In this document: piece by piece, positions 4,939 through 63,408 of the stretch | Layout of the letters: every line of letters begins with the position of its first letter | Position numbering within the stretch: the first letter of the stretch is position 1 | Assembly (NCBI GenBank): GCA_044229975.1 | Contig: JBGARZ010000024.1 | Span: 1-64,000, forward strand | Direction of reading: 5' to 3' | DNA: 64,000 bases | From: Polyangiales bacterium | GTDB taxonomy: Bacteria > Myxococcota_A > Polyangia > Polyangiales > Ga0077539 | Program-made: the position numbers and the translations under genes | Notes under the pieces: generated by a model | Seen by the model: the letters and a program-made list of their open reading frames with translations, nothing else | Databases searched by the model: none | Told to the model about the DNA's origin: nothing

Positions 4939-7900
4939 ATGACCCGCCTGAAGGTGCTCGACGCCTCGCCCGCGCCTCGCGTCGCGTCGCGCCCGTCGCG
5001 CGTCGCGCTCATCAGCCTCACCACGTTCTGCAACGCGCGCTGCCCCTTCTGCTGCGTGCTCGACATCCTCAACCGACCGGAGCTCAACCCCTCGGACGAG
5101 AAGATTCTCGAGCGCATGGCCGAGGCCCGCGCGGAGGGCTGCACCATCCTCGGCTTCACCGGCGGTGAGCCCACGGTGCACCCGCGCTTCGCGGAGTTCT
5201 GCCGACGCGGTCGTGAGCTCGGCTACGAGTCCATCACGATCAACACCAACGGCATCCAGTTCAAGAACCGCGCGTGGACCGAGGCCGCGCTCGAAGCCGG
5301 GCTCTCGCACATCGACTTCTCCATCCACGGCGACTCCCCCGAGCTGCACGACGCCATGATGGATCGGCCGGGCGCCTTCGAGGCCTTCCGCCGCGGGATG
5401 AAGAACCTCCGCGAGCTCTCCGACCGCTACCACCCGGTGCTCGGCACCACCACCGTGGTCACCGCACGCAACGCCCCGCGGCTCGCCTCCATCGCCTCGC
5501 TGCTCATGGACGAGGGCGTCCCCACGCTGCGCTTCAAGCACTGCTTCGAGGGCGCCGAGGGGGCCGACGTCACGCTCGTCGCCCGCTACGCCGACCTCAT
5601 GGGCCACGTGCGCGAGGCCGTTCGTACCGTGCGCGCGCGCGGCGCCATGGTGAGCGTCACGCACTTCCCGCTGTGCCTGCTCGGCGACGAGGCCGTCTTC
5701 GCCACCGACCTCACCGAAGAAGACATCCTCTCCATCAATCGCGACGGCGAGGTGCTCGTCGACGGTCGCGCGTCGGACCACCGCCGCGGCGCCGCCTCGG
5801 TGTGCGAGAACTGCTCCCTCGCGCCGGCGTGCACCAAGCTCGATCGCCGCTACGTCGCCGTCCACGGTGAGTCGGAGCTGCGACCCGTCGTCGGTCGCGC
5901 GGCGCTCAAGGACTTCCTCTACGCCGGGCTCGCGCACCACCGCGGCGAGCCCATGCAGTCCCACGTCCGAAGGTTTCTCGGGGCCACTGAGGTCGCGGCC
6001 GAAGCGCAACGCCCCTCGCTGCTCGTTCCAGGGAGCGATTCCATGAACATCGGTTTCATCAGTCCGACGTTTCGCGTGCTCGAGATGAACTGGGAGCACG
6101 ACTACGAGATGGTGAAGCTCGGGGTGCCCACCGTGATGGGCCACCTCTACCGCCTCGGCCACCGCGACATGGAGCACTGGGACTTCGACGCGCAGATCTG
6201 CGAAGCCTGCGCCGAAGACCCCGACGCCTTCGACCTGCGGCAGTACTTCGACCAGGCCCTCGTCACCGGCTTCCTCAAGGGCACCGACGACTCGCTGCGC
6301 GCGCAGACCGAGAAGCTCCTCGACGTCATGGGCGTCACCGAGAAGACCATCTTCGGCATCTCGCTCTCGGCCGTGCTCGACCGCATCGTCAACGTCATGG
6401 CCCTCGCCGCCGTCGGGCAGTGCATGGCCAAGGTGCTGCGCGAGCGCTACCCCAGGTGCGCCATCATCATCGGCGGCCTCCAGGCGTCGCCCGACAGCAC
6501 GCAGCCCGCCATCTACAAGCAGATCATGGAGGAGTGCCCGGCCATCGACTTCGCCTTCGTCGGGCACGTCGAGGTCATCACCATCCAGACGTTTCGCAAC
6601 ATCTGGAACGGCGACCGCAAGCGCAACCGCATGCTCGGACCGCGCGTTCTCTATCGCGACGACGACGGCACCGTGCGCTTCGGCGTCGATGGTGACGCGG
6701 GCGTCGGCGACGACGTGCTGACCCTCCAGGGGCTGCGGAAGGGCGTTCCGGAGCACACCAACATCGGCGCCAACGCCATGGCCGCTGCGGGCGGGCTCAC
6801 CGACTCCGTCATCGCCGCGTCGAGCCTCACCAAGCGGCGCATGGTCATCGACGGCGTGCAGCACGTGGCCGCGCCCGTCGACTCCAAGGCGGGCGACTTC
6901 GAGCGCACCGACCTGAGCGCGAAGGAAGCCGGCGACCACTCCTACGACACCATCCCCGCCGCGGTGCCGGTGTTCGATCCGAAGCTCGTGAACCTCTTCC
7001 GCTACTCGGGGCGGCAGATCATGAAGCGCTTCCACTTCGACCGCGAGACGATGCTCAAGTACTCGCGCTTCGAGGACGACAAGATCGTCGTGCTGCCGCA
7101 CATCTTCATCCGCGGCTGCAACGCGCCCTGCGGCTTCTGCTCGTACGCGTACACGAAGATCGAAGGCGAAGACCTCGCGCAGACCGTCGCGGGCCTGAAG
7201 TTTCTTTCAGAGACCTACGACTGCAAGCACTTCCACTTCCTCAATACGCAGATCAACTCCGTCTACAAATACGCGGAGATGTTCTGCGATGCGCTCATCG
7301 ACCAGAAGCTCGACCTGCTCTGGTCGGACTGCTGCAACATGCGCTCGCTCGACGAACACCTGCTCGAGAAGATGCAGAAGTCGGGGGCCATGCGGCTCGT
7401 GTTCGGCGTGGAGTCTCCCGAAGACTCCATGCTCCGCATGATCAACAAGGGGATGAACACCGAGACCATCGAGCGGCTCCTCAAGGCCAGCCACGAGCTC
7501 GGCATCTGGAACCACGTGCTGCTCATCGCCGGCATGCCCCATGAGACCAAGCCCAAGCAGGATCGGATCATGGAGTTCCTGGAGCGGACGGCCCCGACCG
7601 TCGACTTCTACTCGGTGTCCTCCTACTACCTGATCGCCACTTCGCCTTGGGGGAAGAACCCCGAGAAGTTCGGCATCGAGCGCATCACCGACTCGGCGGC
7701 CTTCCTCGAAGACCAGGCCTTCAACGAGATTCCGGGCGGGCGCTGGGAGAGCGAGGGCCTCCAGTGGCCCGAGAAGAAGAAGCAGATCGTCGAGTCGACG
7801 CAGCGCTTCTACAAGACCATCACCGCGGCCAAAGGGCAGTCGCGCAGCGTCGCGGGCAACATCGACCTGTACCTGTTGATGTTCCTGTACCGGGCGCTCG

Positions 7901-8481
7901 GGCACGGGCGGAAGGCCGAGATCAGCAAGCTCTACCTGGAGACCGCGAAGACCATCTTCCCGGGACAAGGCCCCGCCGCAGGGTCGAACTCCGCCGACGG
8001 ACCCAACGTGGAGCCCGCCGCTGAGTCCATGCCACGCAACCGCTTCCGCGTGAACATCCCGTACATCCTCGGCCGCGTGAACGAGGCCGATCAGTTCTCG
8101 CTCGTGAACGTGCCCATCGACTTCGACGTGTTTCCGCACGCCTCCGGGCAGCGCGGCTTCGTCAGCTCGGCGCGGTACACGTTCACCTGGCGCAGCCCCG
8201 CGCTCCAGAGCCTCAACGACCGCACCACGCACCAGACCCGCAAGCAGCTCGCCGACAACCTCCCGCAGCTCGCCGCGCAGCTCGTGAAGGTCATCGGGCC
8301 GTTTCTCCAGGCGCTCGACGGTCGCCTCGCGCCCACCACGCCCGAGCGGATGGCCGAGCTCGCGTCCATCAACCTCCCTCGCTACAAGCCCTTCACCAAC
8401 GAGGGCTACACCGTCTACGGACCGCCCACGCAGCGCAACATCATGGAGCGCAACCTCGAATGGAGCGGCCTCAACGGCTGA
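4939..8481 (+). CDS. Double radical SAM protein: N-terminal HxsC-like rSAM, cobalamin-binding-like domain, class B-like rSAM, C-terminal accessory domain
   Basis: The first domain has CNARCPFC, GGEP, an FPLC motif and a CENCSLAPAC tail. The second has IIIGG, CNAPCGFC, FGVES and SPWGKNPEKFGI. Confidence 0.88.
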   Translation: MTRLKVLDASPAPRVASRPSRVALISLTTFCNARCPFCCVLDILNRPELNPSDEKILERMAEARAEGCTILGFTGGEPTVHPRFAEFCRRGRELGYESITINTNGIQFKNRAWTEAALEAGLSHIDFSIHGDSPELHDAMMDRPGAFEAFRRGMKNLRELSDRYHPVLGTTTVVTARNAPRLASIASLLMDEGVPTLRFKHCFEGAEGADVTLVARYADLMGHVREAVRTVRARGAMVSVTHFPLCLLGDEAVFATDLTEEDILSINRDGEVLVDGRASDHRRGAASVCENCSLAPACTKLDRRYVAVHGESELRPVVGRAALKDFLYAGLAHHRGEPMQSHVRRFLGATEVAAEAQRPSLLVPGSDSMNIGFISPTFRVLEMNWEHDYEMVKLGVPTVMGHLYRLGHRDMEHWDFDAQICEACAEDPDAFDLRQYFDQALVTGFLKGTDDSLRAQTEKLLDVMGVTEKTIFGISLSAVLDRIVNVMALAAVGQCMAKVLRERYPRCAIIIGGLQASPDSTQPAIYKQIMEECPAIDFAFVGHVEVITIQTFRNIWNGDRKRNRMLGPRVLYRDDDGTVRFGVDGDAGVGDDVLTLQGLRKGVPEHTNIGANAMAAAGGLTDSVIAASSLTKRRMVIDGVQHVAAPVDSKAGDFERTDLSAKEAGDHSYDTIPAAVPVFDPKLVNLFRYSGRQIMKRFHFDRETMLKYSRFEDDKIVVLPHIFIRGCNAPCGFCSYAYTKIEGEDLAQTVAGLKFLSETYDCKHFHFLNTQINSVYKYAEMFCDALIDQKLDLLWSDCCNMRSLDEHLLEKMQKSGAMRLVFGVESPEDSMLRMINKGMNTETIERLLKASHELGIWNHVLLIAGMPHETKPKQDRIMEFLERTAPTVDFYSVSSYYLIATSPWGKNPEKFGIERITDSAAFLEDQAFNEIPGGRWESEGLQWPEKKKQIVESTQRFYKTITAAKGQSRSVAGNIDLYLLMFLYRALGHGRKAEISKLYLETAKTIFPGQGPAAGSNSADGPNVEPAAESMPRNRFRVNIPYILGRVNEADQFSLVNVPIDFDVFPHASGQRGFVSSARYTFTWRSPALQSLNDRTTHQTRKQLADNLPQLAAQLVKVIGPFLQALDGRLAPTTPERMAELASINLPRYKPFTNEGYTVYGPPTQRNIMERNLEWSGLNG

Positions 8482-8487: not shown

Positions 8488-9135
8488 CTACCGACGCTGC
8501 GCCGGCCCAGGGCCCACCGTGGCGGTCGAGGTCGGCAGCGCAGCGTCGGCCGGAGGCGTTCCGCGGGGCGGCGGGAGCAGCGTCGTGGTCGTCGGGTCGT
8601 CGCCCACGCTCAGGCCGGGCGGCGCCGGGCGGTCGAGGTGCGCGCGGAGGCTGCGCACGAGCGCGTCGGTGAGCGCGGCCGTGGTCTGCGCCGAGGGCCC
8701 CGGCGTCCAGATGTACACCGCGTAGGGGCCGGCGCGCTGGGCCTCGCGGTCGGGGCGCGACAAGCCGATGGCGAAGCCGAAGCGATCGCCGCCGATGCGG
8801 AGGCCGACGTGGATGAGCCCGTGATGCACGGCGCTGATGTTCACCACCTCGGCGCCCCCGAGGGTGCCGCCGACGGTGATGGGCGCCAGAAACGCCAGCA
8901 CCTGGGGAGAGGCCGGCGGAGGATTGACGCTGTCGTAGGGGTGGGTGGCGACGGGCTGCGCCGGCGGGGCGGGCACCCAGTGGTGTCCGCGAACGAGCGA
9001 GCCCGGCGCGCGCAGCCAGCGCGAGATGCGCGGGCGCAGCGCGAAGCCGATGGCGGCCAGCAGCACGAGCGCCACGAGCAGCTTTGGCCAGAGGGGCGCG
9101 GAGGCGGCCTTGGGCTCAGGGTCGGTCGTGCTCAT
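8488..9135 (-). CDS. Single-TM membrane-anchored hypothetical protein (215 aa)
   Basis: MSTTDPEPKAASAPLWPKLLVALVLLAAIGFAL... The upstream extension of the track ORF overlaps the opposite-strand gene and was trimmed. A TACCAT box lies 5 nt before the ATG. Confidence 0.7.
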   Translation of the reverse strand: MSTTDPEPKAASAPLWPKLLVALVLLAAIGFALRPRISRWLRAPGSLVRGHHWVPAPPAQPVATHPYDSVNPPPASPQVLAFLAPITVGGTLGGAEVVNISAVHHGLIHVGLRIGGDRFGFAIGLSRPDREAQRAGPYAVYIWTPGPSAQTTAALTDALVRSLRAHLDRPAPPGLSVGDDPTTTTLLPPPRGTPPADAALPTSTATVGPGPAQRR

Positions 9136-9189: not shown

Positions 9190-10044
9190 GTGACAGAGCC
9201 CGTGGACGCCGAGTGGATCGCCTTCGCCGCCGGACTGAAGCCCGCGATCCGACGCACCGCCGACCCGGCCGACCTCGATCGGGTGGAGGCGCAGCTCCGC
9301 GCGAGCGGTGGCGCCGACGTGGTGGTGCTGCGCGCGAGGGAGACGGCGCTGTTCGGCGCGAGGGAGCAGGCGGTGCTCTACGTGGCCCGGTCGCGCGATC
9401 ACGCCGAGGCGCTGCGGGAAGCGGAGGAGGGTGTTCTGTCGGGGCGCGAGCAGGCACCCGATGGTCGGGCGCGACACGCCACCATCGGGCGGCTGCTGGG
9501 CTTCCCAGCGTGCTGTGTCGAGGCGTTTCTGGTGAGGCTCGACCGCGGCGTCGACCGGCTCGAAGCGGGAGGCATCAGCGGGCTCGCGGAGGACTACGTC
9601 GCGCTGCGCAGCGCCTGGGTGGCGGAGGCCGACGCGCGGGTGAACCCGCTGCTCATGGGGGTGCGGGCGCAGCTCGTGTCGTTCTATCCGTGCCGGTACG
9701 ACTGCCCTGAGGCGGTGGCGCGGGCGGAGGGCGTGCGCGCCGTGGTAGCAGCGCGGCAACCGAAGACCGCGGCTTCGCTCATGGGGTTGCTCTCGCGCCC
9801 GGTGGTCGTGACGCCGGATGGGGCGCGGGCGCTGGTGGCGCTGGATGACGCGCGGGTGGTGGAGCGCGCGGCGGCACCGCGGCGACCCGATGGCGGGAGC
9901 AACCCGCGGGACGTCGCGCTGGCCGAGACGCTGACCGGGCAGAGGGTGAAGGACACGGGAGAGGTGGAGGGAGAGCTGACGCGCGGACTGCCGGCGTGGT
10001 GCGTGGACTTCGGGGGCGTGTCCCTGCGGTCGGAGTTCCGCTAA
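9190..10044 (+). CDS. DUF483-like Cys-motif protein
   Basis: WIAFAAGLKPAIR...GRLLGFPACCVEAF...NPL...FYPCRYDC. The same domain occurs in 10055-12652 and 19047-20543. Confidence 0.7.
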   Translation: MTEPVDAEWIAFAAGLKPAIRRTADPADLDRVEAQLRASGGADVVVLRARETALFGAREQAVLYVARSRDHAEALREAEEGVLSGREQAPDGRARHATIGRLLGFPACCVEAFLVRLDRGVDRLEAGGISGLAEDYVALRSAWVAEADARVNPLLMGVRAQLVSFYPCRYDCPEAVARAEGVRAVVAARQPKTAASLMGLLSRPVVVTPDGARALVALDDARVVERAAAPRRPDGGSNPRDVALAETLTGQRVKDTGEVEGELTRGLPAWCVDFGGVSLRSEFR

Positions 10045-10054: not shown

Positions 10055-12652
10055 ATGGACGAACCCGCGGTGGCGATCCTGCTGTTTCAGGTCGCGCAGA
10101 GCCGGAACTTCATCCACGACGACCTCATCCCCGCGTTTTCCGCGGCGCTCTCGGCCCGCGGCGTCGGCAACGAGCTCTTCGAGACCACGCTCCCCGCCAT
10201 CGACGCCGCCGACGCGGCCGACCTCTCCGCCGTCGATGCGCTCGCCGATCGCCTCCGCGGGCGCTACCGGGTCTGCGGCTACGTCCGCCTCTGGAGCGAG
10301 GCCGTCTTCCAGCGCCTGCGCTCGCTGCTCCCGGGCGTCACCTGGGTCTACCTCGGTGACCCGCGCGTGGCCTTCCCGGGCACCGATCACGCGCTGCCGC
10401 TCACCCAGGTCGAGTCCTTCGCGGCCGTCACGCGCGCCGTGCTCGCGGGCGATCCCGTCACCGACGCGATGCTCGCGCTGCCCCACACCGAGCTCACCCG
10501 CGCCCACGCGCAGGACAACCTCGTGCGCATCGGCGTCGGCGCCCGGAAGCGACCCGATCGGCCCGCCGTCGTGCACGGCAGCGCCGGGTGCGCCTACGGC
10601 CAGAGCGTGCTGGAGAACCCACACTTCGCGGGCGTTCCGTTTCCCGACGAGAAGGTCGTGCTGAAGGGGTGCAGCTTCTGCGCGACGGGCGGCATCCCGC
10701 GTCGGCCCGCCGGGGAGGTGCTCGCGTCGGTGCTCGCGCAGCTCGACAACCTCCTCGACCACGAGCCCGAGACGGCGCGCATCCAGCTCAACGACCAGAA
10801 CCCCTTTCCCTATCTCGTGCAGTTCATCGAGCGGTTGGGCGCTCGCGCCACGCAGCCCATGGAAGTGCTTATCGAAACGAGGGCCGATTGGTTCCTCGGG
10901 TCGATGGTGGTGATGGAGCGGGCGCTCCAGGCGGCGGAGCGGCACGGGCACCGGATTCTGTTGTTCCTGGTGGGCCTCGAAAGCCTCTCGCAGAAGGACC
11001 TCGACCTCTACAACAAGGGCGTCACCGTCGAGCAGAACGAGCGCACCGTGCTGGAGTGCCGACGCCTCCGCCGTCGCTACCCCAAGAGCTACTCGGACAC
11101 GCCCGCGGCCTTCGGGTTCATCCTCTACAACCCGTGGACCGAGCTCACGGACATCACCCTCAACCTCGACACCGCCGAGCGCATCGGGCTCCAGGAATTC
11201 CGCGGCCAGGTCACGCGCGCCAAGCTGCGGCTCTACCCCGACACCGCGCTCTTCTACAAAGCGAAGCACGAGGGGCTGCTCGCCGATCGCTTCCCCTACG
11301 AAGCGATGGATTCGGCGCGGCGCTATGGCTACGAAGCGGAGGTTCCGTGGCGCTTCGCGCGGCGCGAGACCGACCGCGCGTACGGCGTGCACGACGCCAT
11401 CTTCCGCACCGTCGGCAAGCACGAGGAGGTGCGCATGCTCCGCGAGATCGTGCGCTTCCTCGAACGCCGTCCCGACCGCTGGGACGACACGGTGCCCGTC
11501 CTCGCGCGCGACATCGTCCGCTCGCTCGGGTCGCGCTTCCAACGCGACATCCTCCACGGCGCGCCGATGCCCGCACCGTCGCGCGCACCATCGTCATCGG
11601 GGTCGTCCAACGCGCGGTCCACGGAGCCGGGGGTCACTCCGCTCGCGGTCGATGATCGCGCCGGGTGGCAGCGAGCGAGCGACGCCGCGCGAGAAGCACG
11701 AACCCCCGCCGACGTGCTGCGAGCGGCGGGCTTCGAGGCGCCCGATGACCTGCCCAGCGAGCTGCCCGCGATGGCGGTGGATCCGTGGCGGGTGGACGTT
11801 CCGCGGCTGGAGCTGATGGCCTACGAGCACGGCATCAAAGCCGGGCTCTACCTCACGCTCCCGCGCGCCGAGGCCGACGCCATCGCCGCGCGCTTCGGCG
11901 ACGGCCACCACATGACCCGCGTGGACTACCTCTTCGCCCACGACGCCGTCACCGACGTGCGCCGCCGCGCGCCCGCCGCGCCCGGCGAGGGCACCCACGT
12001 GGACCTCTTCATCGCGCGCGATGCGGCCGTCGTCGAGCGCGCCCGCGTCATCTACGAAGACCCCCGCGGCCCCAGCGAACACCTCGCCGAGATGGGCGCC
12101 ATGCTCGGCTATCCGCCGTGCTGCGTGGCGGCCTTTGCGGCGCTGCCCGACCGCTCCAACAACACGGCCATCCGCTACGCCGCCGTCGCGCGAACGCGGG
12201 CGCAGGGGCTGCCCTTCGCGCCGGTGCTCAACAACCTCTTCGCGTACGTGCTGCCGTCGTTTCCGTGCTCGTACGGGTGCCCGCATGCGATCGCGCAGGC
12301 CGAGGCGGTGCTGGCGATGTTGGAGCGCGTTCAGCCGGAGACGGCGGCGACGCTGCGGAAGGCGCTCGCGCGGCCGGTGCTGTTCGTCGACCACGCGCGG
12401 CTCGTGGTGCTGGAGGGCGCGCGGCAGGACGGCGACGTGGTGCGCTACTCGGGCGCGCTGGGCGGCGTCTCGCCGACGGACGATCGGGCCGTGCGCGATG
12501 GCTTCGAGCGGGCGATGGGCGCGGTGCTCGCGCGGGGCGACGGGCTGCGCGTGACGGCGAGCGGTTTGGAGGTCTTGCGCGGGGGAGAGCGGGCTGTGTG
12601 GTTGCCGCGGCGGGCGCCGGGGCTCGGGGTGCTGGCGCCGTTCGGGCTGTAG
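10055..12652 (+). CDS. Radical SAM protein with non-canonical CX26CX2C motif, fused to a C-terminal DUF483-like domain
   Basis: GC-AYG...LKG-CSFC, VGLESLS..DLDLYNKG and GFILYNPWT, followed by LGYPPCC...FPCSYGC. Confidence 0.8.
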   Translation: MDEPAVAILLFQVAQSRNFIHDDLIPAFSAALSARGVGNELFETTLPAIDAADAADLSAVDALADRLRGRYRVCGYVRLWSEAVFQRLRSLLPGVTWVYLGDPRVAFPGTDHALPLTQVESFAAVTRAVLAGDPVTDAMLALPHTELTRAHAQDNLVRIGVGARKRPDRPAVVHGSAGCAYGQSVLENPHFAGVPFPDEKVVLKGCSFCATGGIPRRPAGEVLASVLAQLDNLLDHEPETARIQLNDQNPFPYLVQFIERLGARATQPMEVLIETRADWFLGSMVVMERALQAAERHGHRILLFLVGLESLSQKDLDLYNKGVTVEQNERTVLECRRLRRRYPKSYSDTPAAFGFILYNPWTELTDITLNLDTAERIGLQEFRGQVTRAKLRLYPDTALFYKAKHEGLLADRFPYEAMDSARRYGYEAEVPWRFARRETDRAYGVHDAIFRTVGKHEEVRMLREIVRFLERRPDRWDDTVPVLARDIVRSLGSRFQRDILHGAPMPAPSRAPSSSGSSNARSTEPGVTPLAVDDRAGWQRASDAAREARTPADVLRAAGFEAPDDLPSELPAMAVDPWRVDVPRLELMAYEHGIKAGLYLTLPRAEADAIAARFGDGHHMTRVDYLFAHDAVTDVRRRAPAAPGEGTHVDLFIARDAAVVERARVIYEDPRGPSEHLAEMGAMLGYPPCCVAAFAALPDRSNNTAIRYAAVARTRAQGLPFAPVLNNLFAYVLPSFPCSYGCPHAIAQAEAVLAMLERVQPETAATLRKALARPVLFVDHARLVVLEGARQDGDVVRYSGALGGVSPTDDRAVRDGFERAMGAVLARGDGLRVTASGLEVLRGGERAVWLPRRAPGLGVLAPFGL

Positions 12653-12655: not shown

Positions 12656-14260
12656 TCAGCGCGGGACGAGGCGGTACCAGCCGAGGCGCACCTGGCAGGG
12701 GCGGGCCCAGGGGCCTTCGAGGGTGAAGCCCGTCGGGTCGCCGGGGCACTGACGGTTGATCATCGTGCTGGTGACGGCCACCGTGCGGGTGACCTCCTCG
12801 ACGGGGACGAGGTCGAAGCGCGCGCGCAGGACGGCGAGGCGCTCTTCGTCGCGGAACAACCCGAGGTAGAGCCGCGCGCGGTCGCCGCCGAGGCGCTCGG
12901 GGCACGAGGCCAGGACGCGCTCGACGTCCCGCACGGCCAGCGGGGCGTGCGAGGCCTCGCAGGCGAGCGGCCAGGGGAGAGGGCCCGCGACGGTCGCCAG
13001 CGCCATGATCGGGTTGCCCTCGACGGCGAGGTTCGACAGCCCTTCGCCGTGGTTGCGGTTGGCCAGCAGCAGCGCCTCGCGGTGGCCGAGCACACGGCGC
13101 GTGGAGGCGCGGAGGTAGTCGAACTCGACGGCGAGGTCTTCCGCGCGGCGGAGCGTCGAGAAGTACAGGGGCAACGGCGCCAGCGCGATCGCGATCGGGA
13201 CCACGGCAAACCACTGGCGCCAGTAGCGCTCGGGCGTCCGTGCGAGGAGCCACTCGACGAAGGCCGCCGCGGCGACCGCGATGGGCGGGGCGAGCGAGAT
13301 GTAGTAGCGCCACTGCCCCCAGCGGGGGTTGGCCTCGGAGGCCATCGTCCAGTAGCTCGCGGCGAGCAGGGCGACGGTGAGCAGGAGGGCGAGGCGGAGG
13401 TTCCAGCGTGGGGCGGTGGGCAGGATGACCCCGGCGGCGGCGGCGTAGAGCCACCACACGGGCATCAGCGCGGCGCCCCGCAGGACGAGCGGGACGAAGC
13501 CGGCCGAGTGCCCCGACCGGATCAGGGTTCCGTGGTCGGGCACGAGCGCGGGCAGGTAGGCCGCGAAGCCGAGGAGCAGGCACGCCGCCAGCTGACCGCG
13601 CTCCTTCCACGTCCACCCGGGGCCGAGCACGACCGCCGCGAGCGGCACCACCAGCAGACGAAACTCCGGCCGCGCGTAGACCCCGAGCACCGTCAGCGCC
13701 GCCAGGATCACCGGACGCCACGGGGCGCCGACGCCGCCCGCCGCGGCCACGGCGAAGGCGGCGATCCAGAAGGGGGTTCCTTCGACGGCGAAGGTCAGCC
13801 CCGTGGAGTAGTGCAGGTGCGCCGGCCACGCGCAGAGGATCGCCGCCGCCAGCAGCGCGCCCGCCCGCTTGAGCCCGAAGCTCTGCGCCATCAGGTAGGT
13901 GGCAGCCACCGCCCCGGCGCCCGCGAGGGGGGGAGTCCAACGCAGCAGGGTGGCCACGCCGAGGCCCAGGCCGTGGAGCGCCGCGGCCAGCAGCGGCACC
14001 GTGGAGAAGTGCTGCGGGAGCTGCCCGGAGATGCCCCACAGGGCTTCGAGGCGCTCGCCGTCGGCGAAGTTGAGCGGCCCCCAGGGCAGCGCGACGCGCG
14101 GCACCAGCGCGGTGACGAACACCACCGGCAGCAGCCATCGCTCGACGGGAGAGCGCCACCACCAGCCCGCGCCGCGGGCGACGACCCAGGTCAGGGTCAC
14201 GGCCCAGGCGGCGGTCACCGCGACCGCGTCGGCGTTTTGGAGGAGGACGTTTTGCGCCAT
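12656..14260 (-). CDS. Polytopic membrane protein, GT-C (PMT/ArnT-like) glycosyltransferase-like
   Basis: About 10 hydrophobic segments, YARPE and WRYY motifs and a soluble C-terminal domain. Paralogous to 29026-31494 (C-termini VRLGWYRL vs VELGLYRI). Confidence 0.6.
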   Translation of the reverse strand: MAQNVLLQNADAVAVTAAWAVTLTWVVARGAGWWWRSPVERWLLPVVFVTALVPRVALPWGPLNFADGERLEALWGISGQLPQHFSTVPLLAAALHGLGLGVATLLRWTPPLAGAGAVAATYLMAQSFGLKRAGALLAAAILCAWPAHLHYSTGLTFAVEGTPFWIAAFAVAAAGGVGAPWRPVILAALTVLGVYARPEFRLLVVPLAAVVLGPGWTWKERGQLAACLLLGFAAYLPALVPDHGTLIRSGHSAGFVPLVLRGAALMPVWWLYAAAAGVILPTAPRWNLRLALLLTVALLAASYWTMASEANPRWGQWRYYISLAPPIAVAAAAFVEWLLARTPERYWRQWFAVVPIAIALAPLPLYFSTLRRAEDLAVEFDYLRASTRRVLGHREALLLANRNHGEGLSNLAVEGNPIMALATVAGPLPWPLACEASHAPLAVRDVERVLASCPERLGGDRARLYLGLFRDEERLAVLRARFDLVPVEEVTRTVAVTSTMINRQCPGDPTGFTLEGPWARPCQVRLGWYRLVPR

Positions 14261-49566: not shown

Positions 49567-49570
49567 GGCG

Positions 49571-51592: not shown

Positions 51593-51681
51593 GCGCTCCG
51601 TCTACCGGTACCGCGGCCCGGCTTCAATCCCGACGCTGCACTTGACCAGAACGCGGCGGCTGCGGTCCCATCGCGGCCTCG

Positions 51682-56041: not shown

Positions 56042-58234
56042 CTATCCAGGCTCGACGAGGCCCGCGAGGAGCTGCCGCGCGACGGCCGGATAGAACTTCG
56101 GATCGGCCACCTGGGCGTTGCCGATGGCGCATCCCCAGTTGCAATTGCACTTGCCCGCGCCGAGGTGTGCGCCAGCAAAGTCGCGCATGGGCTCGCCCCG
56201 CAGCACCCGCGGCAGGTCGTACGCGTGGTCGCGCACGTTGCCCACGGACTGCTGGAGCGGCTCGCAGGGCTGCACGTCGCCGTAGGGTCCGAGCACCACG
56301 ATCTTCTTGCCCGCGCCGCACACCCGCCCGAGGTCGGCCTCTTCGTGGAGGCGCTTGAGCTGGTTGTCCGAGGCGCGCTTCACGGCCGTGAAGAGCCGGT
56401 GCCGCAGCCCCCGGTAGCCGCGCTTGCCCGACAGACGGAAGGCCTTCTCGGCGAGCTCGATGTAGCGCTCGTGCGGCACCGCGAGGGACTTGTCCTTGAA
56501 GTTGCCGTGCAGCGGAACGAGGTGGATGCGGTCGCACTCCCTGGTCGCCGCGAGCTCTTCGAGCCAGCCGTCGAGCGAGTCGATGTTCTCGGTCGAGACG
56601 GTCACCACGAACTTCAACCCGAGGTTGGCGCGCCGCTTCACCAGCGGGAGCACCGCGGCGTGGGTGGTCATCACCTGGGCGTAGCTGGCAGCCTTGGTCT
56701 TGCGGATGCGGTCGTGCACGGCGGGCGGGCCGTCGAGCGAGAGGTGCACGTCGAAGTTGGTGCGCGGGTTGCGGCGGGTGAGCGCGTCCATCGCGGCGAC
56801 CACGCGCTCGGGAAACGCACCGTTGGTGGGGATGGACACGAACACCGGGTCAGCCGTGTCGACGATGGCCTGCACCACCTCGGCGAGGTCGTCGCGCAGG
56901 TAGGGCTCACCGCCCGAGAGCGAGAGGTAGGTCATCTTCGGCAGCGACTTCGCCACCGACCGGATCTCGTCGAGCGACAGCTCGCGCGACTGCGAGGCGT
57001 GCTCGATCTCCTCCCAGTAGAAGCACATCGAGCAGCGGGCGTTGCAGCGCGCCGTCACGAAGAAGATCAGCCAGCTCGGGAAGTCCCCGGCCGTCCACAC
57101 GCGGTACGGAACCGTCGACCGCGCCTGCGCCCCGAAGCCCTGCGCGACCTCGACGCCCGTGAAGGCCGCGTCCCGATCGCGGTAACGCCACGCCTTGTGC
57201 GAGCGCGCCGCCCCGCTCCGCAGCCACGCGATCGGTCCCCACAGGAGGCCGCACCAGAAGCCCAGGAGCGTTCCGCCGGTGGCGAGCGCGGTGGCGGCGC
57301 CGGTGCGAGCGCGGTCCCAGAGGGCGGGCGAGGGTGAGAGCGAGACGGCACCGTAGAGAGCGACGGCGAGGGTGCCGAGCGTGACCACCGCGGCCAGCGC
57401 GGCGAGGCGCAGCGGTGAGACCACGCAGAAGGCCAGCACCGCGAGCGCGACGACCAGCAGGGCGATGGCGAGCTGCACGCCCCGCTGCGGCAGGTACAGC
57501 TCCGCGAACGACCACGTCGACTGACCGCCGTGCCAGCGCTGCCGGAAGTAGTGGGTGACGAGCGGCCACAGCACCGGGCGCTTCAGGTGCGCCGACGCGA
57601 GGGCCGGGTCGTTGACGATGCGGAAGCCCTCGCGCGCGGCGAGGAAGAAGAACTCGGCGTCGTCGATCCAGTAGGGGGCGACCTCGTTGAAGCCGCCGAC
57701 ACGATCGAAGACGGCGCGGCGCATGGCGACGTTGCAGAGCGACACGCCGAAGTAGGGGACGGGCGTTCGCGTCGGGTTGGCCATGGCCGTCTTCAGGCTG
57801 AAGATCGGCGACGTCACGATGTTGTTGGCCGCGCGCTGCGCGAAGTCGTCGGCGTAGGGCTCGTTGCTCGGGCCCGTCACCACGTCGGCCTCGTCGAGCG
57901 CGGCGAGGGCGGCGGCGACCCAGCCCGGCGCGAGCTTCACGTCGTCGTCGATGAAGGCCAGGTGCTCGGTCGCGAGCGCCGCGGCCGCGCCGACGTTGCG
58001 CTTCACGCAAGGGTGCCGCGAGGGCGAGCGCAGCACCCGGACGGTCACCCGCTCGGAGCCGTACTGCGCGGCGTCGTCGGTCACCAGCACCAGCTCGAAG
58101 GAGTCGCGCGGGGCGGTCTGCGCCTCCAGGCTCGCGATGAGGGGATCGATGATGTCCGCGCCGCGGCTCACCGGCGCCACGAGGCTGATGCGCGGCCGCT
58201 TCGAGCGCGAGATCTGCACCAGACCGGAGGTCAT
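56042..58234 (-). CDS. GT2 glycosyltransferase, TM segment and radical SAM/SPASM fusion
   Basis: KRNVG, AFIDDD, VGGFNE and DDAEF, then about 3 TMs. Then CNARCSMC, SGGEP, PTNG, SLDG and CGAG..QPCE..CNCNWGC. Confidence 0.88.
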   Translation of the reverse strand: MTSGLVQISRSKRPRISLVAPVSRGADIIDPLIASLEAQTAPRDSFELVLVTDDAAQYGSERVTVRVLRSPSRHPCVKRNVGAAAALATEHLAFIDDDVKLAPGWVAAALAALDEADVVTGPSNEPYADDFAQRAANNIVTSPIFSLKTAMANPTRTPVPYFGVSLCNVAMRRAVFDRVGGFNEVAPYWIDDAEFFFLAAREGFRIVNDPALASAHLKRPVLWPLVTHYFRQRWHGGQSTWSFAELYLPQRGVQLAIALLVVALAVLAFCVVSPLRLAALAAVVTLGTLAVALYGAVSLSPSPALWDRARTGAATALATGGTLLGFWCGLLWGPIAWLRSGAARSHKAWRYRDRDAAFTGVEVAQGFGAQARSTVPYRVWTAGDFPSWLIFFVTARCNARCSMCFYWEEIEHASQSRELSLDEIRSVAKSLPKMTYLSLSGGEPYLRDDLAEVVQAIVDTADPVFVSIPTNGAFPERVVAAMDALTRRNPRTNFDVHLSLDGPPAVHDRIRKTKAASYAQVMTTHAAVLPLVKRRANLGLKFVVTVSTENIDSLDGWLEELAATRECDRIHLVPLHGNFKDKSLAVPHERYIELAEKAFRLSGKRGYRGLRHRLFTAVKRASDNQLKRLHEEADLGRVCGAGKKIVVLGPYGDVQPCEPLQQSVGNVRDHAYDLPRVLRGEPMRDFAGAHLGAGKCNCNWGCAIGNAQVADPKFYPAVARQLLAGLVEPG

Positions 58235-58246: not shown

Positions 58247-59098
58247 CTACCCCGACACGATGCGGAACTCCGTCGTCGCGAGCGGGGCCATGTCCTCGGT
58301 GCGCCCGTCGGGCACGTCCCCTTTGCCCTCGCGCGTCTCGGCGATGCGGGTGTCGAGCGTCGCCAGGAGCTGACCGACGTTGGCCGTGAAGAGCCGCGCG
58401 AAGTCCGCGAGCCGGCGGCTGCGGCTCCAGACCGCGTAGCAGTAGCGGTTGAGGTCGTTGTCGTAGAAGAACGCCAGCGTCATGGGGGCCGTGGCGCCGG
58501 GGCGATCCCAGGTGGGCCACTCGGCGGGGAAGGCCGCGCGGATGCGCTCACCGAGCGCGTCGATGCTGGCGCGCGGGACGCGGTGGTAGTTCTGCGCGTG
58601 CACGGTGAGGTCGTGCGCGAGCGTGGTGAAGTGCCAGGCGAGCGAGTCGAGGTCGCGCGCGTCGGAGGCCCGCGGAATCTCGCGCGACGCGTAGAAGCCG
58701 GCCGACGCCACATGCAGCGGGATGAGGCCCTCCATGTAGCGGCAGAGCCACGGTCCGCCGCTCAAGGCAGGGCGGTCTTCGACGGTGAGCGAGAGGCGGT
58801 AGCCGTCGCCCGGCGCGTCGAGCGCATCGAGCCCGGCGTTGAAGCTCGACGGGGTGGGCGCGCCGTAGATGCGACCGGTGCCCTCCCAGGCGAAGCCGAG
58901 CGCGCGCATGTGGGCGACGACCTCGTCGCTGCCGCGGAAATGCCCTGTTCCGCCGAGCATTTCCTTCGGCTCGAACACCAGCGGAAAGGCCAGCCGGTAG
59001 CGGTCGCCCGGCAGCGCCTCGACGCCGGGCGGGGCACCGAAGGCGCGGGCGAAGCCGTCCATCCATGGCGTCAGCAGCGCCCGTTCGTCATCGCGCAA
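58247..59098 (-). CDS. Hypothetical protein
   Basis: It fills the gap between co-oriented genes and has ordinary amino-acid composition (AHDLTVH, FFYDND). The start is uncertain. Confidence 0.65.
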   Translation of the reverse strand: MRDDERALLTPWMDGFARAFGAPPGVEALPGDRYRLAFPLVFEPKEMLGGTGHFRGSDEVVAHMRALGFAWEGTGRIYGAPTPSSFNAGLDALDAPGDGYRLSLTVEDRPALSGGPWLCRYMEGLIPLHVASAGFYASREIPRASDARDLDSLAWHFTTLAHDLTVHAQNYHRVPRASIDALGERIRAAFPAEWPTWDRPGATAPMTLAFFYDNDLNRYCYAVWSRSRRLADFARLFTANVGQLLATLDTRIAETREGKGDVPDGRTEDMAPLATTEFRIVSG

Positions 59099-61190
59099 CG
59101 GTCTGGTCCTGTCGGGCGCGCGGCGGGGTGGCGAGCTCGGACCCGGCGCGCGGCGGACCGAAGGTGAGCACGTGGAAGTCGCGGCCGTAGCGCAGGGGCT
59201 CGCTCCAGGCGTCGCCGCTCGCGGGGGTCAGCGCGTCGCCCGAGACGACCAGCGCCGCGCCCGGAACGAGCCGCCCGTAGACCCGGCGGCGGGTGGACGC
59301 CTCGCCGAAGCGGTAGGCCAGCATGCTGTCGACGGAGAGCGTTCGGGGCGCGGGCGACGGGTCGTCGGACCACCCGACGCGGCCGCCAAAGCAGACAAAA
59401 TCGCCGTCGTCGAAGAGCACCATGTGGCCCGCGAGGGTTGCGCCGAGGTTGCGTTCGAGCTGGGGCATCGCCTCGCGCAGGGCCGCCTCGAAGCGGTGGG
59501 TCACCGCGTCGCCGGGCTCGGCCGGGGACAGCAGCCGCGGCGGCTCGACGGGCGTGACCCGGCGGGGCTGCTCGACGGGCGACGGTCCGCCGGTGAAGCG
59601 CAGCGCGGCGGTGTAGGCCTCGTCCTTGGTCGCGAAGGTTCGGCGCAGCGCGAAGATGAACGCCGGCTGCATGGAGTCGAGGGCCGCGCGGTCGCCCCGG
59701 CCCTCGCGCCACGCCTGGCGCAGCACCTCTTCAGAGGGGCGCAGGGTCGCCTGGCGCTCCTCCCAGGTCATGCCGTCGACCTCGTCGTAGGTGAGCGACC
59801 CGAGCTGCTTGCGGAACTTGTAGTCGCCGTCCACCACGCGCTGGCCGCGGATGGTGATGCCGAAGCGCGCCGGGTCGTCCCCGATGGGCGAGTCGCGCAC
59901 CAGGTAGAACGACGAGGGCGCGAGGTCGTCGATGGCGAAGGCGTTTTCGCGGGTCCACTCGACGGTGTCGAGGAGGTCTTCGCGGGTCTCGCCGGGGAAG
60001 CACGGCAGCAGGTTGACCCGCACCATGATCTCGTTGCGGTGCGCCTCGCGGATCACCCGCGTCGCGTGGAAGGGCCGGTGCCCCTTGATCATCCGCTTGA
60101 GCATCTTCTCGGAGCCCGACTCGACGCCGAGCGTGAGGCCCACGCAGCCCGCGCGCGCCATCAGCGTGAGATCACCCTCGCGCGACGGCATCACCCGGTA
60201 GGAGTCCGACCAGCGCACCCCGAGCTTCGCGCCGATGAGGGCGTTGGCGAAGTCCACGGCGTGCAGGTTGATCTGCGTGTCGAAGAGCATGAAATCGCCA
60301 ACGTTCCAGCGCTCGGACATCTCCGCGAGGTCGCGCACCACGCGGTCCATGGACTTCGCGCTCTGGGTGCCGCCGTTCTGGCAGAAGGTGCACTTGTACT
60401 GGCACGCGAAGGTGAAGAGGTACGGCAGGAAGAGCCCTGGCCCCACGCTCCCGTCGTAGGCCGAGAAGGGGTGCGGGGTGACGGCGAAGGGGTCGTAGCG
60501 GTAGTCGTCGAGGCGGTAGATGCCGAAGTCGGGCACGGGCCACTCGTCGGGCGCGGTGTCGCGGGGCTCGGCGACGGGCTCGACGGGCAGCGCGTGACGG
60601 CCCGGCGAGAGCTCGCGCAGCGCCGCGAAGGCGTAGCGGATCTCGTCGGGCGTCGTGGCCGCGGTGACCACGTCGACGAGCAGGGCGCCGAGCTCGGTGA
60701 GGATGCCGTGCGCGGCGCGCGCGTTGACGCCGCCGAGGATGGAGGGCGTTCCGTAGCGGCGCTTGAAGGCCGCGGCGAGGAAGGCGCCGACGCGAATCTG
60801 CGTGTGGCGGTCGAGGGAGACGGCGACGAGGTCGCAGTCACCGGGCGCATCGATGCGGGCGAGGAGGTCGTCGGCGAGGGCTTCGAGGGCCTCGTGGCGC
60901 TCGCCGCGCAGGTAGGCGCCGAGGGCCGCGTCGTCGTCGATGGGCGAAGGGTCGACCGCCGGGGGATGACGGAAGACCGAGAGCTCGAGGTCGACGGCGC
61001 GGGTGACGAAGCCGTCGCGGGCGATGGCGGCGGCGACGAGCGCCGGGCCCTGCGGGGGGAAGCGGTGCAGGCGGTTGACCTCCGGGGCGTCGACGTCCGG
61101 GGGCAGCACCATGAGCACGCTGCGCGGCGGGCCCGGGCGCACCACGGGCGCAGGCACATCACGAACAACGCTCAGGCGCAGGCCGGTCAC
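59088..61190 (-). CDS. B12-binding-like class B radical SAM protein
   Basis: VLPP..PPQGPALV, ILGG, CQYKCTFC, DTQIN, LGVESGS and SPIGDDPARFGI. Paralogous to the second half of 4939-8481. Confidence 0.88.
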   Translation of the reverse strand: MTGLRLSVVRDVPAPVVRPGPPRSVLMVLPPDVDAPEVNRLHRFPPQGPALVAAAIARDGFVTRAVDLELSVFRHPPAVDPSPIDDDAALGAYLRGERHEALEALADDLLARIDAPGDCDLVAVSLDRHTQIRVGAFLAAAFKRRYGTPSILGGVNARAAHGILTELGALLVDVVTAATTPDEIRYAFAALRELSPGRHALPVEPVAEPRDTAPDEWPVPDFGIYRLDDYRYDPFAVTPHPFSAYDGSVGPGLFLPYLFTFACQYKCTFCQNGGTQSAKSMDRVVRDLAEMSERWNVGDFMLFDTQINLHAVDFANALIGAKLGVRWSDSYRVMPSREGDLTLMARAGCVGLTLGVESGSEKMLKRMIKGHRPFHATRVIREAHRNEIMVRVNLLPCFPGETREDLLDTVEWTRENAFAIDDLAPSSFYLVRDSPIGDDPARFGITIRGQRVVDGDYKFRKQLGSLTYDEVDGMTWEERQATLRPSEEVLRQAWREGRGDRAALDSMQPAFIFALRRTFATKDEAYTAALRFTGGPSPVEQPRRVTPVEPPRLLSPAEPGDAVTHRFEAALREAMPQLERNLGATLAGHMVLFDDGDFVCFGGRVGWSDDPSPAPRTLSVDSMLAYRFGEASTRRRVYGRLVPGAALVVSGDALTPASGDAWSEPLRYGRDFHVLTFGPPRAGSELATPPRARQDQTVAR

Positions 61191-61260: not shown

Positions 61261-63408
61261 ATGCACATCATCGCCAGCGGGCAGGAGGAGCTCATCCGGC
61301 GCATGGTCGCGCCGCCCCTACCGTCCGGCTGGGAGTTCGCGGGCGCCCGCATCGAGGGGGCCACCGTCGTCGCGCGCTACGGCCGGGCGAGCGATCGCGC
61401 CGTCGCGGTGATGACCCTCGCGCACCCGGCGGCCTCGGAGTCGGCGGTGACCACGCGGCGCTTCGCCGTGCACTGGCGCCTCTCGCCCGGCGCACGCGAC
61501 GCGGCAGCCCTCGCCCGCGCCGTGATCGTCTCGGTGCGCGCCACCGAGGAGGGCTTCGTCTGGACGCTGCCCCCCGCGCCGACCGCCGAGGTGGCGCCCG
61601 CACCACCACCGCCGCCCGCACCACCACCGCCCGACCCGGCGCTCGCACTCATCGAGGAGGCGCTCGCGACCATCGAGGCATCCCCGGTCGGGGAGGCGCT
61701 CGTCGACGGATCGACGCTCACGGCCGCCGCGGACGAGTGGGGCAACGTGGTGCTCGACCTCGCGCGACCCGACGGCGGACGACTGGAGGTGCGCCTCGGA
61801 CCGGCGCAACGCAGCGTCGTCGCCACGTGGACCAGCGCGGGCGACGATGGCTCCGATCCGCGCCGTCACCCGCAGCCCGCGGCCCGGTGGTTTGCCGTCG
61901 CGGCGCGGGTGTTTCCCCACCTCGCGGTCGACGTGAGCGACACGGTGGAGGCGCGCGACCGCGTCGTGCTCGACCCCGTCGGCGTGGCCGAGCTGCTCGC
62001 GCCGGACGTCGCGCTCGGCGGTGCATCCATCGCGGGTCATCGGCTCGTGGCGGTTCGCACCCCGCGCGCCGACGGATCGTCCTCGACCCTGGGGCGCGTG
62101 CGGTTGGAGTTCTCCCAGAGCGACATGGGCGAGTCGCTGGAGGTCGTCGTCGCGCCGGCCGCGGCGCTCGACCCGGTGTTTGCGAGCCACGCGGGCGTCG
62201 GCGTCGGGATGCTGCACTTCGGGCACGCCGATCGTGGTGGCGCCAAGGCGCGGGCCGCGCTGCTCTGCTCGCACCTCGCCGCGCTGCTCGCCCGCAAGCT
62301 CCGGGTCGGCGCGACGGTGGTGGTCCCGTCCGAGGCCGCGGCGGTGCGGCTGCTCGACGGGCGCGCTGCGACGGCATCGGTCCGCGACGAGGTGCTCAAC
62401 CTCAACCTCGACGCCGAGTGCGGGCAGCGCTGCACCTTCTGCCCCATCAAGAGCTTCGTCCCCTCCCACGACGGCGGCGCGCAGGAGCTGGAGTCCCTGC
62501 GGCTCCAGATCCAGGCGGCGGCGGCACGCGGTCAGCGACGGGCGCGGCTCAACGGCATCGACCCGCTGGCCTTCTCGCGCGTGCTCGACCTGGCCTCAGC
62601 CCTGCGCGACGCGGGCTTCGAGTCGCTGGAGGTCATGGGCCCCGGGCGGCGCTTCGCCGACGATGGGTTTCGCCTGGAGTTCCTGCGGAGGAGCCCCGCG
62701 CACACGGAGGTGGTGGTTCCGCTCTACGGCGTCACGGCCGACCTCCATGACGCCGTCACGGGCGCGCCGGGATCGCACGCCGAGGTGCTCCGCGCCCTCG
62801 ACGGCCTGCGCGCCGACCTCGCACCCGGTCGCCTCGGCCTCGCCACGGTGATCACCCGCCAGAACGTCGACGGCTTCGCCGACCTCGTGCGCTTCGCCCG
62901 CGAACGATCGCTCACCCTCTGGCCGCAGCTCCCGTACCCGCTCCGGCAGACGAAGCACGGCGCCTACGCGGACTCGGCCCTGCCCGAGTCGGAGATCGTC
63001 GCGCGCGTGCTGCGGTCGCTCCACGACGCCGACGCCGACGAGCGGGCCGCGTGCCTCTTCGCGCTCGCCAACGCCATCCGTCACCCGTGCCTGCTGTGGC
63101 GCGCCGAGCGCTCGACGGGCCTCGGCGTCTTCGAGGCCGCGCGCACGCTCCCGCGCCGATCGCTCGCGGGCGTCGCGGTGACGGACGAACACGACCCGCG
63201 CGGTGACGGCGGCGCGCGCAGCCTGACGACGCTCCACGTGGTGCGGACCCCCTGCCCCGAGGCGGGCCGCTGCGCGCTGCTCCCGGCCTGCGCGGGCGAC
63301 CACTACACGGCCTACGGCGAGCGCTTCGGGCTCGATGAGTTTGTCGCGGTGGGGGTGTGGGACCTCGCGCTGGCTCCCCTCCGACGCGACGACTACCGTC
63401 CGCCCTGA
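61261..63408 (+). CDS. Radical SAM protein (NGIDP variant) with N-terminal accessory domains
   Basis: GGGAG RBS before MHIIASGQEELIRRMV. CGQRCTFC, NGIDPL, RHPC and CPEAGRCALLPAC. Confidence 0.87.
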   Translation: MHIIASGQEELIRRMVAPPLPSGWEFAGARIEGATVVARYGRASDRAVAVMTLAHPAASESAVTTRRFAVHWRLSPGARDAAALARAVIVSVRATEEGFVWTLPPAPTAEVAPAPPPPPAPPPPDPALALIEEALATIEASPVGEALVDGSTLTAAADEWGNVVLDLARPDGGRLEVRLGPAQRSVVATWTSAGDDGSDPRRHPQPAARWFAVAARVFPHLAVDVSDTVEARDRVVLDPVGVAELLAPDVALGGASIAGHRLVAVRTPRADGSSSTLGRVRLEFSQSDMGESLEVVVAPAAALDPVFASHAGVGVGMLHFGHADRGGAKARAALLCSHLAALLARKLRVGATVVVPSEAAAVRLLDGRAATASVRDEVLNLNLDAECGQRCTFCPIKSFVPSHDGGAQELESLRLQIQAAAARGQRRARLNGIDPLAFSRVLDLASALRDAGFESLEVMGPGRRFADDGFRLEFLRRSPAHTEVVVPLYGVTADLHDAVTGAPGSHAEVLRALDGLRADLAPGRLGLATVITRQNVDGFADLVRFARERSLTLWPQLPYPLRQTKHGAYADSALPESEIVARVLRSLHDADADERAACLFALANAIRHPCLLWRAERSTGLGVFEAARTLPRRSLAGVAVTDEHDPRGDGGARSLTTLHVVRTPCPEAGRCALLPACAGDHYTAYGERFGLDEFVAVGVWDLALAPLRRDDYRPP

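Follow-up and report, generated by a model that had tools for sequence, protein, structure and literature searches.

The closest described relative of the locus considered here is the HXS system, a four-gene anti-phage system (HxsD-HxsB-HxsC-HxsA; TIGR03976-03979; Li et al. 2026, PMC13128918). According to that report, HxsB, HxsC and HxsD of Escherichia (E.) coli are needed for processing of the substrate and for a +8 Da change in its His-x-Ser (HxS) repeat, the product acts in the periplasm to block the entry of phage DNA, and 99.7% of these systems are found in Pseudomonadota. A related "type 4" set is catalogued in NCBIfam (HxsA4, NF038313; HxsD-like, NF038315; HxsC4, NF038332); our literature search, outside which most subscription journals lie, found no paper that names HxsA4 or HxsC4 or describes this branch. 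Here, we analyze the first 64,000 bases (the window) of a 150,355-bp contig, C30, from the genome of a Polyangiales bacterium (10.0 Mb, 71% GC, 93% complete). A first-pass annotation of the window proposed that the radical S-adenosylmethionine (radical-SAM) genes at 4939..63408 constitute an undescribed modification system. The locus is indeed conserved and uncharacterized; it is not undescribed in kind, because its likely substrate is HxsA4, a catalogued family. We conclude that it is a greatly enlarged and likely plasmid-borne variant of a His-Xaa-Ser system that has been catalogued but not studied; the plasmid family, the scale and the link to glycosylation are its new features.

The locus shares with the HXS system HxsB and HxsD proteins above the family cut-offs, HxsC-like paralogs and a His-x-Ser repeat substrate. 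It differs in size (about 90 genes instead of four), in the precursor, which in the reported system carries five basic repeats, a signal peptide and a peptidoglycan-binding domain and here consists of 64 neutral repeats behind an acidic leader, and in the enzymes: a true HxsC is not found on the contig, and class-B radical-SAM, DUF483, HExxH, halogenase-like, sugar and carbamoyl genes are added. Relative to the type 4 set, the precursor and the HxsD-like protein pass the cut-offs and HxsC4 is the best match of many window enzymes, but no protein here passes the HxsC4 cut-off, the system is replicon-borne, and the complete precursors of this family hold 26-64 repeats (8 copies) as compared to 12-16 in other families (8 copies). 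The pathway to TVG/poly-cyclopropylglycine, as reported (PMC9062424), likewise combines a leader and a three-residue repeat core with adjacent radical-SAM enzymes, but its motif and enzyme families differ and it has far fewer tailoring enzymes. Large extrachromosomal elements have been reported from myxobacteria, i.e., pMF1, pSa001 (209.7 kb, which also bears a biosynthetic cluster) and a plasmid of Myxococcus sp. MxC21 (PMC11705834). Unlike these, the present replicon has a Rep-like protein without a PLSDB match and no annotated relaxase or type IV secretion system gene, and its family is found in 12 of 31 genomes of one bacterial family, carrying mostly tailoring genes of the kind that modify RiPPs (peptides made by the ribosome and altered after translation).

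The HxsA4 precursor and the Hxs core

The likely substrate of the window genes is the ribosomal precursor HxsA4, encoded outside the window in an Hxs core located about 60 kb beyond it (contig coordinates continue the window numbering). The HxsA4 gene was found in a gap left by the gene caller. Its 258-residue open reading frame comprises a 65-residue acidic leader, one His-Cys-Ser unit, 63 His-Gly-Ser units and a final Trp, i.e., 64 His-x-Ser repeats. Seven synonymous codon sets are used across the 63 His-Gly-Ser units, and the repeat is therefore maintained at the protein level rather than being a collapsed perfect repeat. The protein scores 245.5 bits with NF038313 (cut-off 55), covering profile positions 1-92 of 93 with the leader included, and leader and core are conserved across an alignment of 19 precursors. 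The canonical HxsA model (TIGR03979) gives 15 bits (cut-off 121.65); only the acidic leader and the repeats are present.

Around the precursor, at 125.5-130.2 kb, are found HxsB (TIGR03978, 533 bits, cut-off 370), HxsD (TIGR03976, 59.5 bits, cut-off 50), an HxsD-like protein (73.3 bits, cut-off 41) and an aKG-HExxH hydroxylase (90 bits, cut-off 40). The gene order is D, D-like, B, A, C-like instead of the canonical D-B-C-A. For many of the window enzymes HxsC or HxsC4 is the best match, always below the cut-off, with a CxxCx5C tail in common; 32301, 47667, 59088 and the C-terminal domain of 4939 (genes are referred to by the coordinates in Table 1) are class-B methyltransferase-like.

Other HxS loci were also seen. 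A second compact HXS-like operon lies on a large contig (G000:C20:549854-553769) in the order A-D-B-C, with a short HxS-repeat gene and putative HxsD-like, HxsB (35% identical to the plasmid copy) and HxsC-like genes. Tandem HxsA4 precursor pairs occur in other families (L008, G013:C20:766981-767715; L205). HxS-repeat precursors with 3-9 radical-SAM neighbors are found in Patescibacteria, Omnitrophota and Elusimicrobiota (L096, L108, L111, L112, L132 and L169), several of which end in a GGWC or GQW tail.

Radical-SAM genes of the window and the contig

A codon-trained gene call yielded 41 genes in the window, which constitutes the left 43% of C30. All ten radical-SAM genes of the first-pass annotation are located where they had been placed, in coding frames with high GC content at third codon positions. 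Together they encode 12 radical-SAM domains and ten canonical CxxxCxxC motifs, two in 4939 and one each in 16909 (C-terminal domain), 22999, 24345, 32301, 47667, 56042, 59088 and 61261. In 10055 the motif is stretched to C-x(26-33)-C-x2-C (C-x27-C-x2-C in the window); all three Cys are kept in 12 of 12 aligned homologs from several families, and the motif is therefore atypical rather than decayed. Certain QueE proteins, for example, are active radical-SAM enzymes with a stretched cluster motif. The N-terminal domain of 16909 has lost the third Cys here and in the same-genus relative G145, and is canonical in two of the three more distant homologs that were aligned. The earlier count of eleven intact motifs and one degenerate motif is thus reproduced as eleven plausible motifs and the degenerate one in 16909. 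With the Pfam Radical_SAM model, 10055 and 61261 score below the curated cut-off and 24345 is borderline.

The density of these genes is as unusual as had been noted: of 71 PF04055 matches in the genome, 32 are on C30 and 10 in the window, while the remaining 39 amount to about 0.25 per 64 kb, i.e., the window density is about 40 times the background. The cluster is real, but it does not end at 63408; it extends to about 133.7 kb and its core is outside the window. In total, C30 holds 28 radical-SAM genes with 31 canonical motifs and, including 10055, 29 such genes. Internal paralog pairs were recovered (24345/61261, 40%; N-termini of 20597/61261, 49%; 4939 C-terminal domain/59088, 30%; 43478/51682, 47%). 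In agreement with the first-pass annotation, none of the domain scans made identified nonribosomal peptide synthetase, polyketide synthase or YcaO domains. Its labels DUF483, TPR, AspH-like, GT2, GT9, SGNH, deacetylase and carbamoyltransferase were matched by family models; GT-C-like has no Pfam or NCBIfam match and refers to a multi-transmembrane (multi-TM) topology only.

A viperin assignment was rejected, since the pVip profiles match 3 of 17 proteins at 34-45 bits, within the generic radical-SAM core and not over the full length. A tRNA-Tyr called by ARAGORN at 29208-29290 lies inside gene 29026 and was taken as spurious; an Rfam scan over 144 kb gave no match. One wastewater DNA run contains short, near-identical pieces of this DNA, and three RNA libraries contain contigs about 85-95% alike, which do not demonstrate transcription. 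Beyond the window, C30 carries a strain-specific insert (78074-86688) that neither G145:C13 nor G153:C34 (below) possesses; it holds two near-duplicate B12 radical-SAM genes, three JmjC/cupin-8 genes and genes for 2-oxoglutarate (2OG) oxygenases. At 94576-98262, C30 also encodes a triple fusion of ferredoxin, carbamoyltransferase and radical-SAM domains.

Co-occurrence, synteny and phylogeny

Co-occurrence was assessed in 251 genomes of the order, including one unpublished genome (G123, repeat-positive). A pattern of four His-Gly-Ser repeats plus His is present in 94 of these, a reversed control pattern in 3. The 10055 family occurs in 60 genomes, 56 of which carry the repeat, compared to 38 of the other 191; for the 24345 family the repeat is present in 30 of 32. 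The four genomes with the 10055 family but without the repeat are assemblies of 790-1850 contigs. Hence, the window families are not scattered without co-occurrence, an outcome that would have spoken against the first-pass proposal, and synteny is kept as well: a 137-kb contig of the same genus with a 53-repeat precursor (G145:C13) has orthologs of 34 of the 41 window genes, and a circular relative from another genus that keeps the Hxs core (G153:C34) has orthologs of nine.

Among ten well-assembled relatives from other families, a 10055 homolog is found 31-67 kb from the precursor in four. Radical-SAM genes within the 100 kb surrounding the precursor number 15 in G045, 21 in G114, 8 in G124 and 1 in G181. 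The chromosomal HxsA4 regions of G045 and G114, which belong to another family, hold the closest relatives of 16909, 22999, 24345/61261 and 32301. In a tree of 96 domains, constructed by a quick method only, 24345/61261 (support 98), 22999 (95), 32301 (92) and 16909 (89) fall together with members of the clusters in these two genomes and apart from the chromosomal enzymes of the genome that contains C30.

GTDB genomes were scanned for precursors up to 119 loci, out of stretches estimated at 1300 (some loci may duplicate others used here), and such precursors were found at least in Myxococcota, Elusimicrobiota, Patescibacteria, Binatia and Omnitrophota. Among 80 scan loci with flanking sequence, an HxsB homolog is present within 10 kb at 30 and a 10055/9202 homolog at 7; many of the others are unrelated His-rich matches.

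Accessory domain and DUF483

A 95-residue domain is present in seven copies in 14291 and in two copies in 19047. Its model shows a helix, a four-stranded sheet and a helix (pLDDT 86), an order of elements considered in relation to the PqqD fold; the fold search with this accessory-domain model returned only non-specific matches (best Z 7.7, root-mean-square deviation 4.4, 98 aligned residues). There are 51 relatives among 1.84 billion proteins; of 31 that were scanned, 8 are fused to a radical-SAM domain. Profile comparison joins the 14291-type domain to a second family (20597, 61261, 29026, 111716, 132138; probability 95.9%), and this family to a third (8488, 24345, 121094; 97.6%). The domain thereby links seven window genes with the core genes 111716, 121094 and 132138, of which 121094 is retained even in the minimal locus of G001. 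These links came from profile-profile comparison: iteration of the 14291 repeat profile by itself retrieved no proteins other than 14291 and 19047, the domains of 29026 and 61261 showed no significant similarity in pairwise BLAST (E 0.077), and probabilities were below 50% for the N-termini of 22999, 108233 and 116183 and the C-termini of 4939 and 59088. Complex prediction that paired the leader and initial repeats of HxsA4 with the stand-alone domain (121094 family) returned a score of 0.00, an outcome taken neither for nor against an interaction. The domain type of 29026 is also found on proteins near precursors in G013 and G114, and its fusion in 29026 is the best link between the radical-SAM and the sugar genes.

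The DUF483 domains (9202 and the C-terminal parts of 10055 and 19047) have four invariant Cys; the fold search found no match in the PDB.

Plasmid-like features of the contig

C30 is likely a plasmid of about 150 kb, judged by its gene content and that of its relatives, a character that the first-pass annotation had not noted. It encodes a ParA partition ATPase (NF041546, 202 bits, cut-off 180), a ribbon-helix-helix protein, a tyrosine recombinase, a second DnaB that is 33% like the chromosomal one, and a helix-turn-helix Rep-like protein (134301-135995), after which come six direct repeats and a palindrome rich in AT. A repeated 9-mer is present downstream of the Rep-like gene in 4-8 copies in 13 of 13 loci, a count without a shuffle control. 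The Rep function is putative, with an atlas link to Rep3 of only 0.85; the nearest atlas cluster is mostly from Myxococcota. Full-length Rep-like orthologs were found in 12 of 31 genomes of the family (79-89% identity within the genus, 66-76% outside) and in none of five genomes from other families; the spread at 66-76% beyond the genus suggests long residence. Both ends of the relative G153:C34 (87,612 bp) fall inside the HExxH gene, and across the junction the reading frame and the sequence run on exactly, i.e., it is a closed circle. C30, G145:C13 and G161:C25 all start and finish inside giant Cys-rich repeat genes. All of 17 metagenome contigs with a Rep-like gene are at most 151.5 kb, 8 of them with Hxs-block genes in the flank, and the same limit holds for the contigs of 69 protein clusters related to 9202. 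Neither the Rep-like protein nor the double radical-SAM protein 112855 has a match among 72,556 PLSDB plasmids, and no relative of the Rep-like protein was found on viral contigs. The tetranucleotide distance of C30 ranks fourth among 26 large contigs, which is not decisive.

The giant gene at C30 137866-150354 (L005:7511-19999) encodes an exported Cys-rich protein of more than 4100 residues, in which 46 disintegrin-like stretches occur together with MopE-like motifs and F5/8 domains, and it adjoins the replication module in most loci seen. Two more distant Rep-like paralogs (59-64%) are found beside a ParA-like gene on a 152-kb contig (G000:C29:39880-47650) whose tetranucleotide profile deviates most and which may be a second plasmid. 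Genome G161 harbors the replicon backbone twice (C25 and C65; L058-L066), in both cases without radical-SAM cargo; G161:C25 has many insertion sequences, pieces of a group II intron, and GT87 and TPR genes.

Sugar and tailoring genes

With queries from C30 for eleven tailoring and sugar families, at least three families per 100 kb were found near the precursor in 3 of 7 regions of other families and in none of 80 bins from the genome itself, the control being one genome. None of the heptose, GT9, GT-C-like or carbamoyl genes is present on the circular relative, and the radical-SAM-free sister replicon G161:C25 bears GT87, PMT-TPR, DegT-type and Cys-rich genes. Since Cys-rich exported proteins occur also on this sister replicon, they are considered backbone cargo. 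Thus, of the single pathway proposed for the whole window, the conserved modification system is supported, while the sugar genes are variable cargo for which a shared pathway or product is unproven. Outside C30, the 93%-complete genome holds no close second copy of HldE, HldD or GmhA, and the replicon may therefore be the sole source of heptose.

Proposed function and alternative explanations

We favor, with moderate confidence, an explanation in which the window forms an arm of accessory enzymes on a likely plasmid; its 29 radical-SAM genes lie around the HxsA4 gene, and the enzymes are predicted to mature HxsA4 into a heavily modified, probably exported polymer. It builds on direct observations, i.e., gene content, membership in the HxsA4, HxsB, HxsD and HxsD-like families, co-occurrence, synteny, the shared accessory domain and the replication module. 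The HxsB and HxsD proteins would engage the conserved HxsA4 leader, and the HxsC-like paralogs (4939 N-terminal domain, 16909, 22999, 24345, 61261 and roughly twelve more outside the window) would perform radical chemistry on the repeat His/Ser, as in E. coli HxsA. The class-B enzymes (4939 C-terminal domain, 32301, 47667, 59088) may methylate, and the HExxH and 2OG enzymes may hydroxylate. The DUF483 proteins could act as metal-binding partners, and the accessory domain could dock enzymes, on either side of the membrane, to a substrate or partner that they share. Sugar, carbamoyl and acyl genes would be add-ons that vary between strains and that might, at somewhat less than even odds, decorate the exported product.

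Several observations weigh against this explanation. The co-occurrence tallies count related genomes (G045 and G114 are of one genus), and independence is overstated. In 6 of the 10 relatives the 10055 homolog and the precursor are separated by 0.5-1.9 Mb or lie on different contigs. Among the C30 proteins the best scores are 111.6 bits for HxsC (TIGR03977, cut-off 267.9) and 142 bits for HxsC4 (cut-off 500). The precursor has neither a signal peptide nor a wall-binding domain, and no leader peptidase or ABC exporter is annotated on the contig except for a TatA gene, several proteins being without a family. The accessory domain is also present on two chromosomal signal-peptide membrane proteins (G000:C11:298951 and C32:681346) outside any radical-SAM locus, 4 of the 7 precursor regions have at most one sugar or tailoring family, and C30 lacks a terminal overlap, so that circularity is established for the relative and inferred for C30.

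The window may alternatively combine two unrelated cargos, the HxsA4 system and a glycan or protein-glycosylation kit (28-58 kb) in which B12-type radical-SAM enzymes methylate sugars for lipopolysaccharide or Cys-rich proteins. We consider this rather unlikely: the absence of sugar blocks from the circular relative, the sugar genes of the radical-SAM-free replicon and the location of 47667 and 56042 within or fused to GT2 modules are consistent with it, but GT-C-like 29026 shares the accessory domain of the radical-SAM enzymes, likewise in two other families, and sugar and carbamoyl genes recur within chromosomal HxsA4 clusters in the three regions mentioned above. The radical-SAM/DUF483 battery could also make a small-molecule cofactor or metabolite, the repeat peptide being a scaffold, metal store or bystander instead of the window enzymes' substrate. 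So many enzymes for a three-residue repeat are hard to rationalize, window families are often distant from the precursor on chromosomes, and some precursor loci (G001, G181) have only one radical-SAM neighbor. Yet the four genomes with the 10055 family and no repeat are fragmented assemblies, from which repeats are easily lost, HxsC/HxsC4 or class-B families give the top scores for most window enzymes, which group with members of Hxs clusters, and the E. coli homologs are reported to modify an HxS repeat (PMC13128918), which makes this reading very improbable. That C30 is a chromosomal island or integrated element instead of a free plasmid would fit the missing terminal overlap, the tyrosine recombinase, the lack of PLSDB matches and the chromosomal location of the same system in other families. 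The in-frame closure of the relative, the three contigs bounded by giant repeat genes, the Rep-like gene with iteron-like repeats in all 13 loci, and the uniform 151.5-kb upper limit of the metagenome contigs argue against it, and we regard it as improbable.

If HxsA4 is matured as proposed, the role that we favor for its product, although we find it doubtful, is that of an envelope barrier, by analogy with HXS phage defense. Defense is an analogy only, because HxsA4 lacks the signal peptide, wall anchor and basic residues of E. coli HxsA; the product may instead be a metal-binding or contact-related surface polymer. An extended version, unlikely as a whole, would have a hitherto unrecognized, long-resident myxobacterial plasmid family dedicated almost entirely to one glyco-RiPP envelope coat against phages or other attackers, a radical-SAM-remodeled, externally glycosylated (His-Gly-Ser)26-64 chain. 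In the cytoplasm, remodeling of the chain would fall to about thirty radical-SAM domains together with DUF483 metalloproteins, hydroxylases and a halogenase-like enzyme; outside, membrane glycosyltransferases with the same docking domain would glycosylate it. Such a pathway would be the most enzyme-rich RiPP pathway known to us.

The locus offers a substrate candidate for a large set of orphan radical-SAM enzymes, for DUF483 and for the conserved stretched C-x27-C-x2-C motif. HXS chemistry, studied so far, in the work cited, as a four-gene E. coli defense with an unexplained +8 Da change, has a branch of about thirty enzymes and up to 64 repeats. Plasmids of this phylum have otherwise been reported from about three strains, according to the sources cited, and the replicon family is a possible source of vectors; the closed 87.6-kb version is a complete, clonable gene set.

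Gene content

Table 1. Features of the window and selected features of the remainder of C30
Feature	Coordinates	Strand	Remark
Giant Cys-rich repeat protein, 3' part (disintegrin-like and MopE-like repeats), open at contig start; replicon backbone	1..4746	+	similar genes on radical-SAM-free G161:C25
Double radical-SAM: HxsC/HxsC4-like N-terminal domain with CxxCx5C tail, class-B methyltransferase-like C-terminal domain	4939..8481	+	ortholog in 7/31 family genomes
Membrane-anchored stand-alone accessory-domain protein, paralog of core gene 121094	8488..9135	-	
DUF483 protein, four invariant Cys	9202..10044	+	no fold match in PDB
Atypical radical-SAM (C-x27-C-x2-C) fused to DUF483	10055..12652	+	
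Multi-TM protein, GT-C-like by topology only	12656..14260	-	no family match
Seven tandem copies of ~95-residue accessory domain	14291..16831	-	
Double radical-SAM; degenerate N-terminal motif, intact C-terminal motif	16909..19044	+	
Two accessory domains and DUF483	19047..20543	-	
Accessory domain and TPR repeats	20597..22930	-	
HxsC-like radical-SAM	22999..24348	+	
Accessory domain and HxsC-like radical-SAM, paralog of 61261	24345..26300	+	
Cys-rich repeat lipoprotein	26356..28107	+	
AspH-like 2OG-Fe(II) hydroxylase	28126..28950	+	
Lipoprotein signal, accessory domain, multi-TM GT-C-like region	29026..31494	+	
Acidic double-disulfide repeat lipoprotein (NF033662)	31498..32250	-	start approximate
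B12-binding radical-SAM	32301..34085	-	
ADP-heptose block: HldE, GT9 heptosyltransferase-like, HldD	34110..37866	not single	GmhA at contig 67210
Multi-TM GT-C-like protein, SGNH-TPR, FG-GAP protein, membrane SGNH	37856..44857	not single	
Operon: B12-type radical-SAM (47667), GT2, two small open reading frames, polysaccharide deacetylase, SDR epimerase	44869..49127	-	kept on circular relative
Carbamoyltransferase, DUF5989, SxtJ-like protein, membrane SGNH	49156..53067	not single	
Tyrosine recombinase, replicon backbone	53239..54366	+	84-85% orthologs on G145:C13, G161:C25, G169:C784
Lipoprotein without family assignment	54420-55814		absent from syntenic relatives
GT2 fused to radical-SAM/SPASM	56042..58234	-	
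Protein without family assignment	58247..59062	-	46% paralog of contig 130168 beside Hxs core
Class-B methyltransferase-like radical-SAM	59088..61145	-	closest G145 homolog in Hxs core block
Accessory domain and HxsC-like radical-SAM	61261..63408	+	
Lipoprotein gene start, cut by window edge	63408..64000	+	
ParA	contig 67977		
Ribbon-helix-helix protein	contig 101108		
HxsA4 precursor	contig 124642-125418	-	
HxsB, HxsD-like, HxsD, methyltransferase, HExxH hydroxylase	contig 125509-130159		
Iteron-like repeats, Rep-like gene, second DnaB	contig 134014-137257

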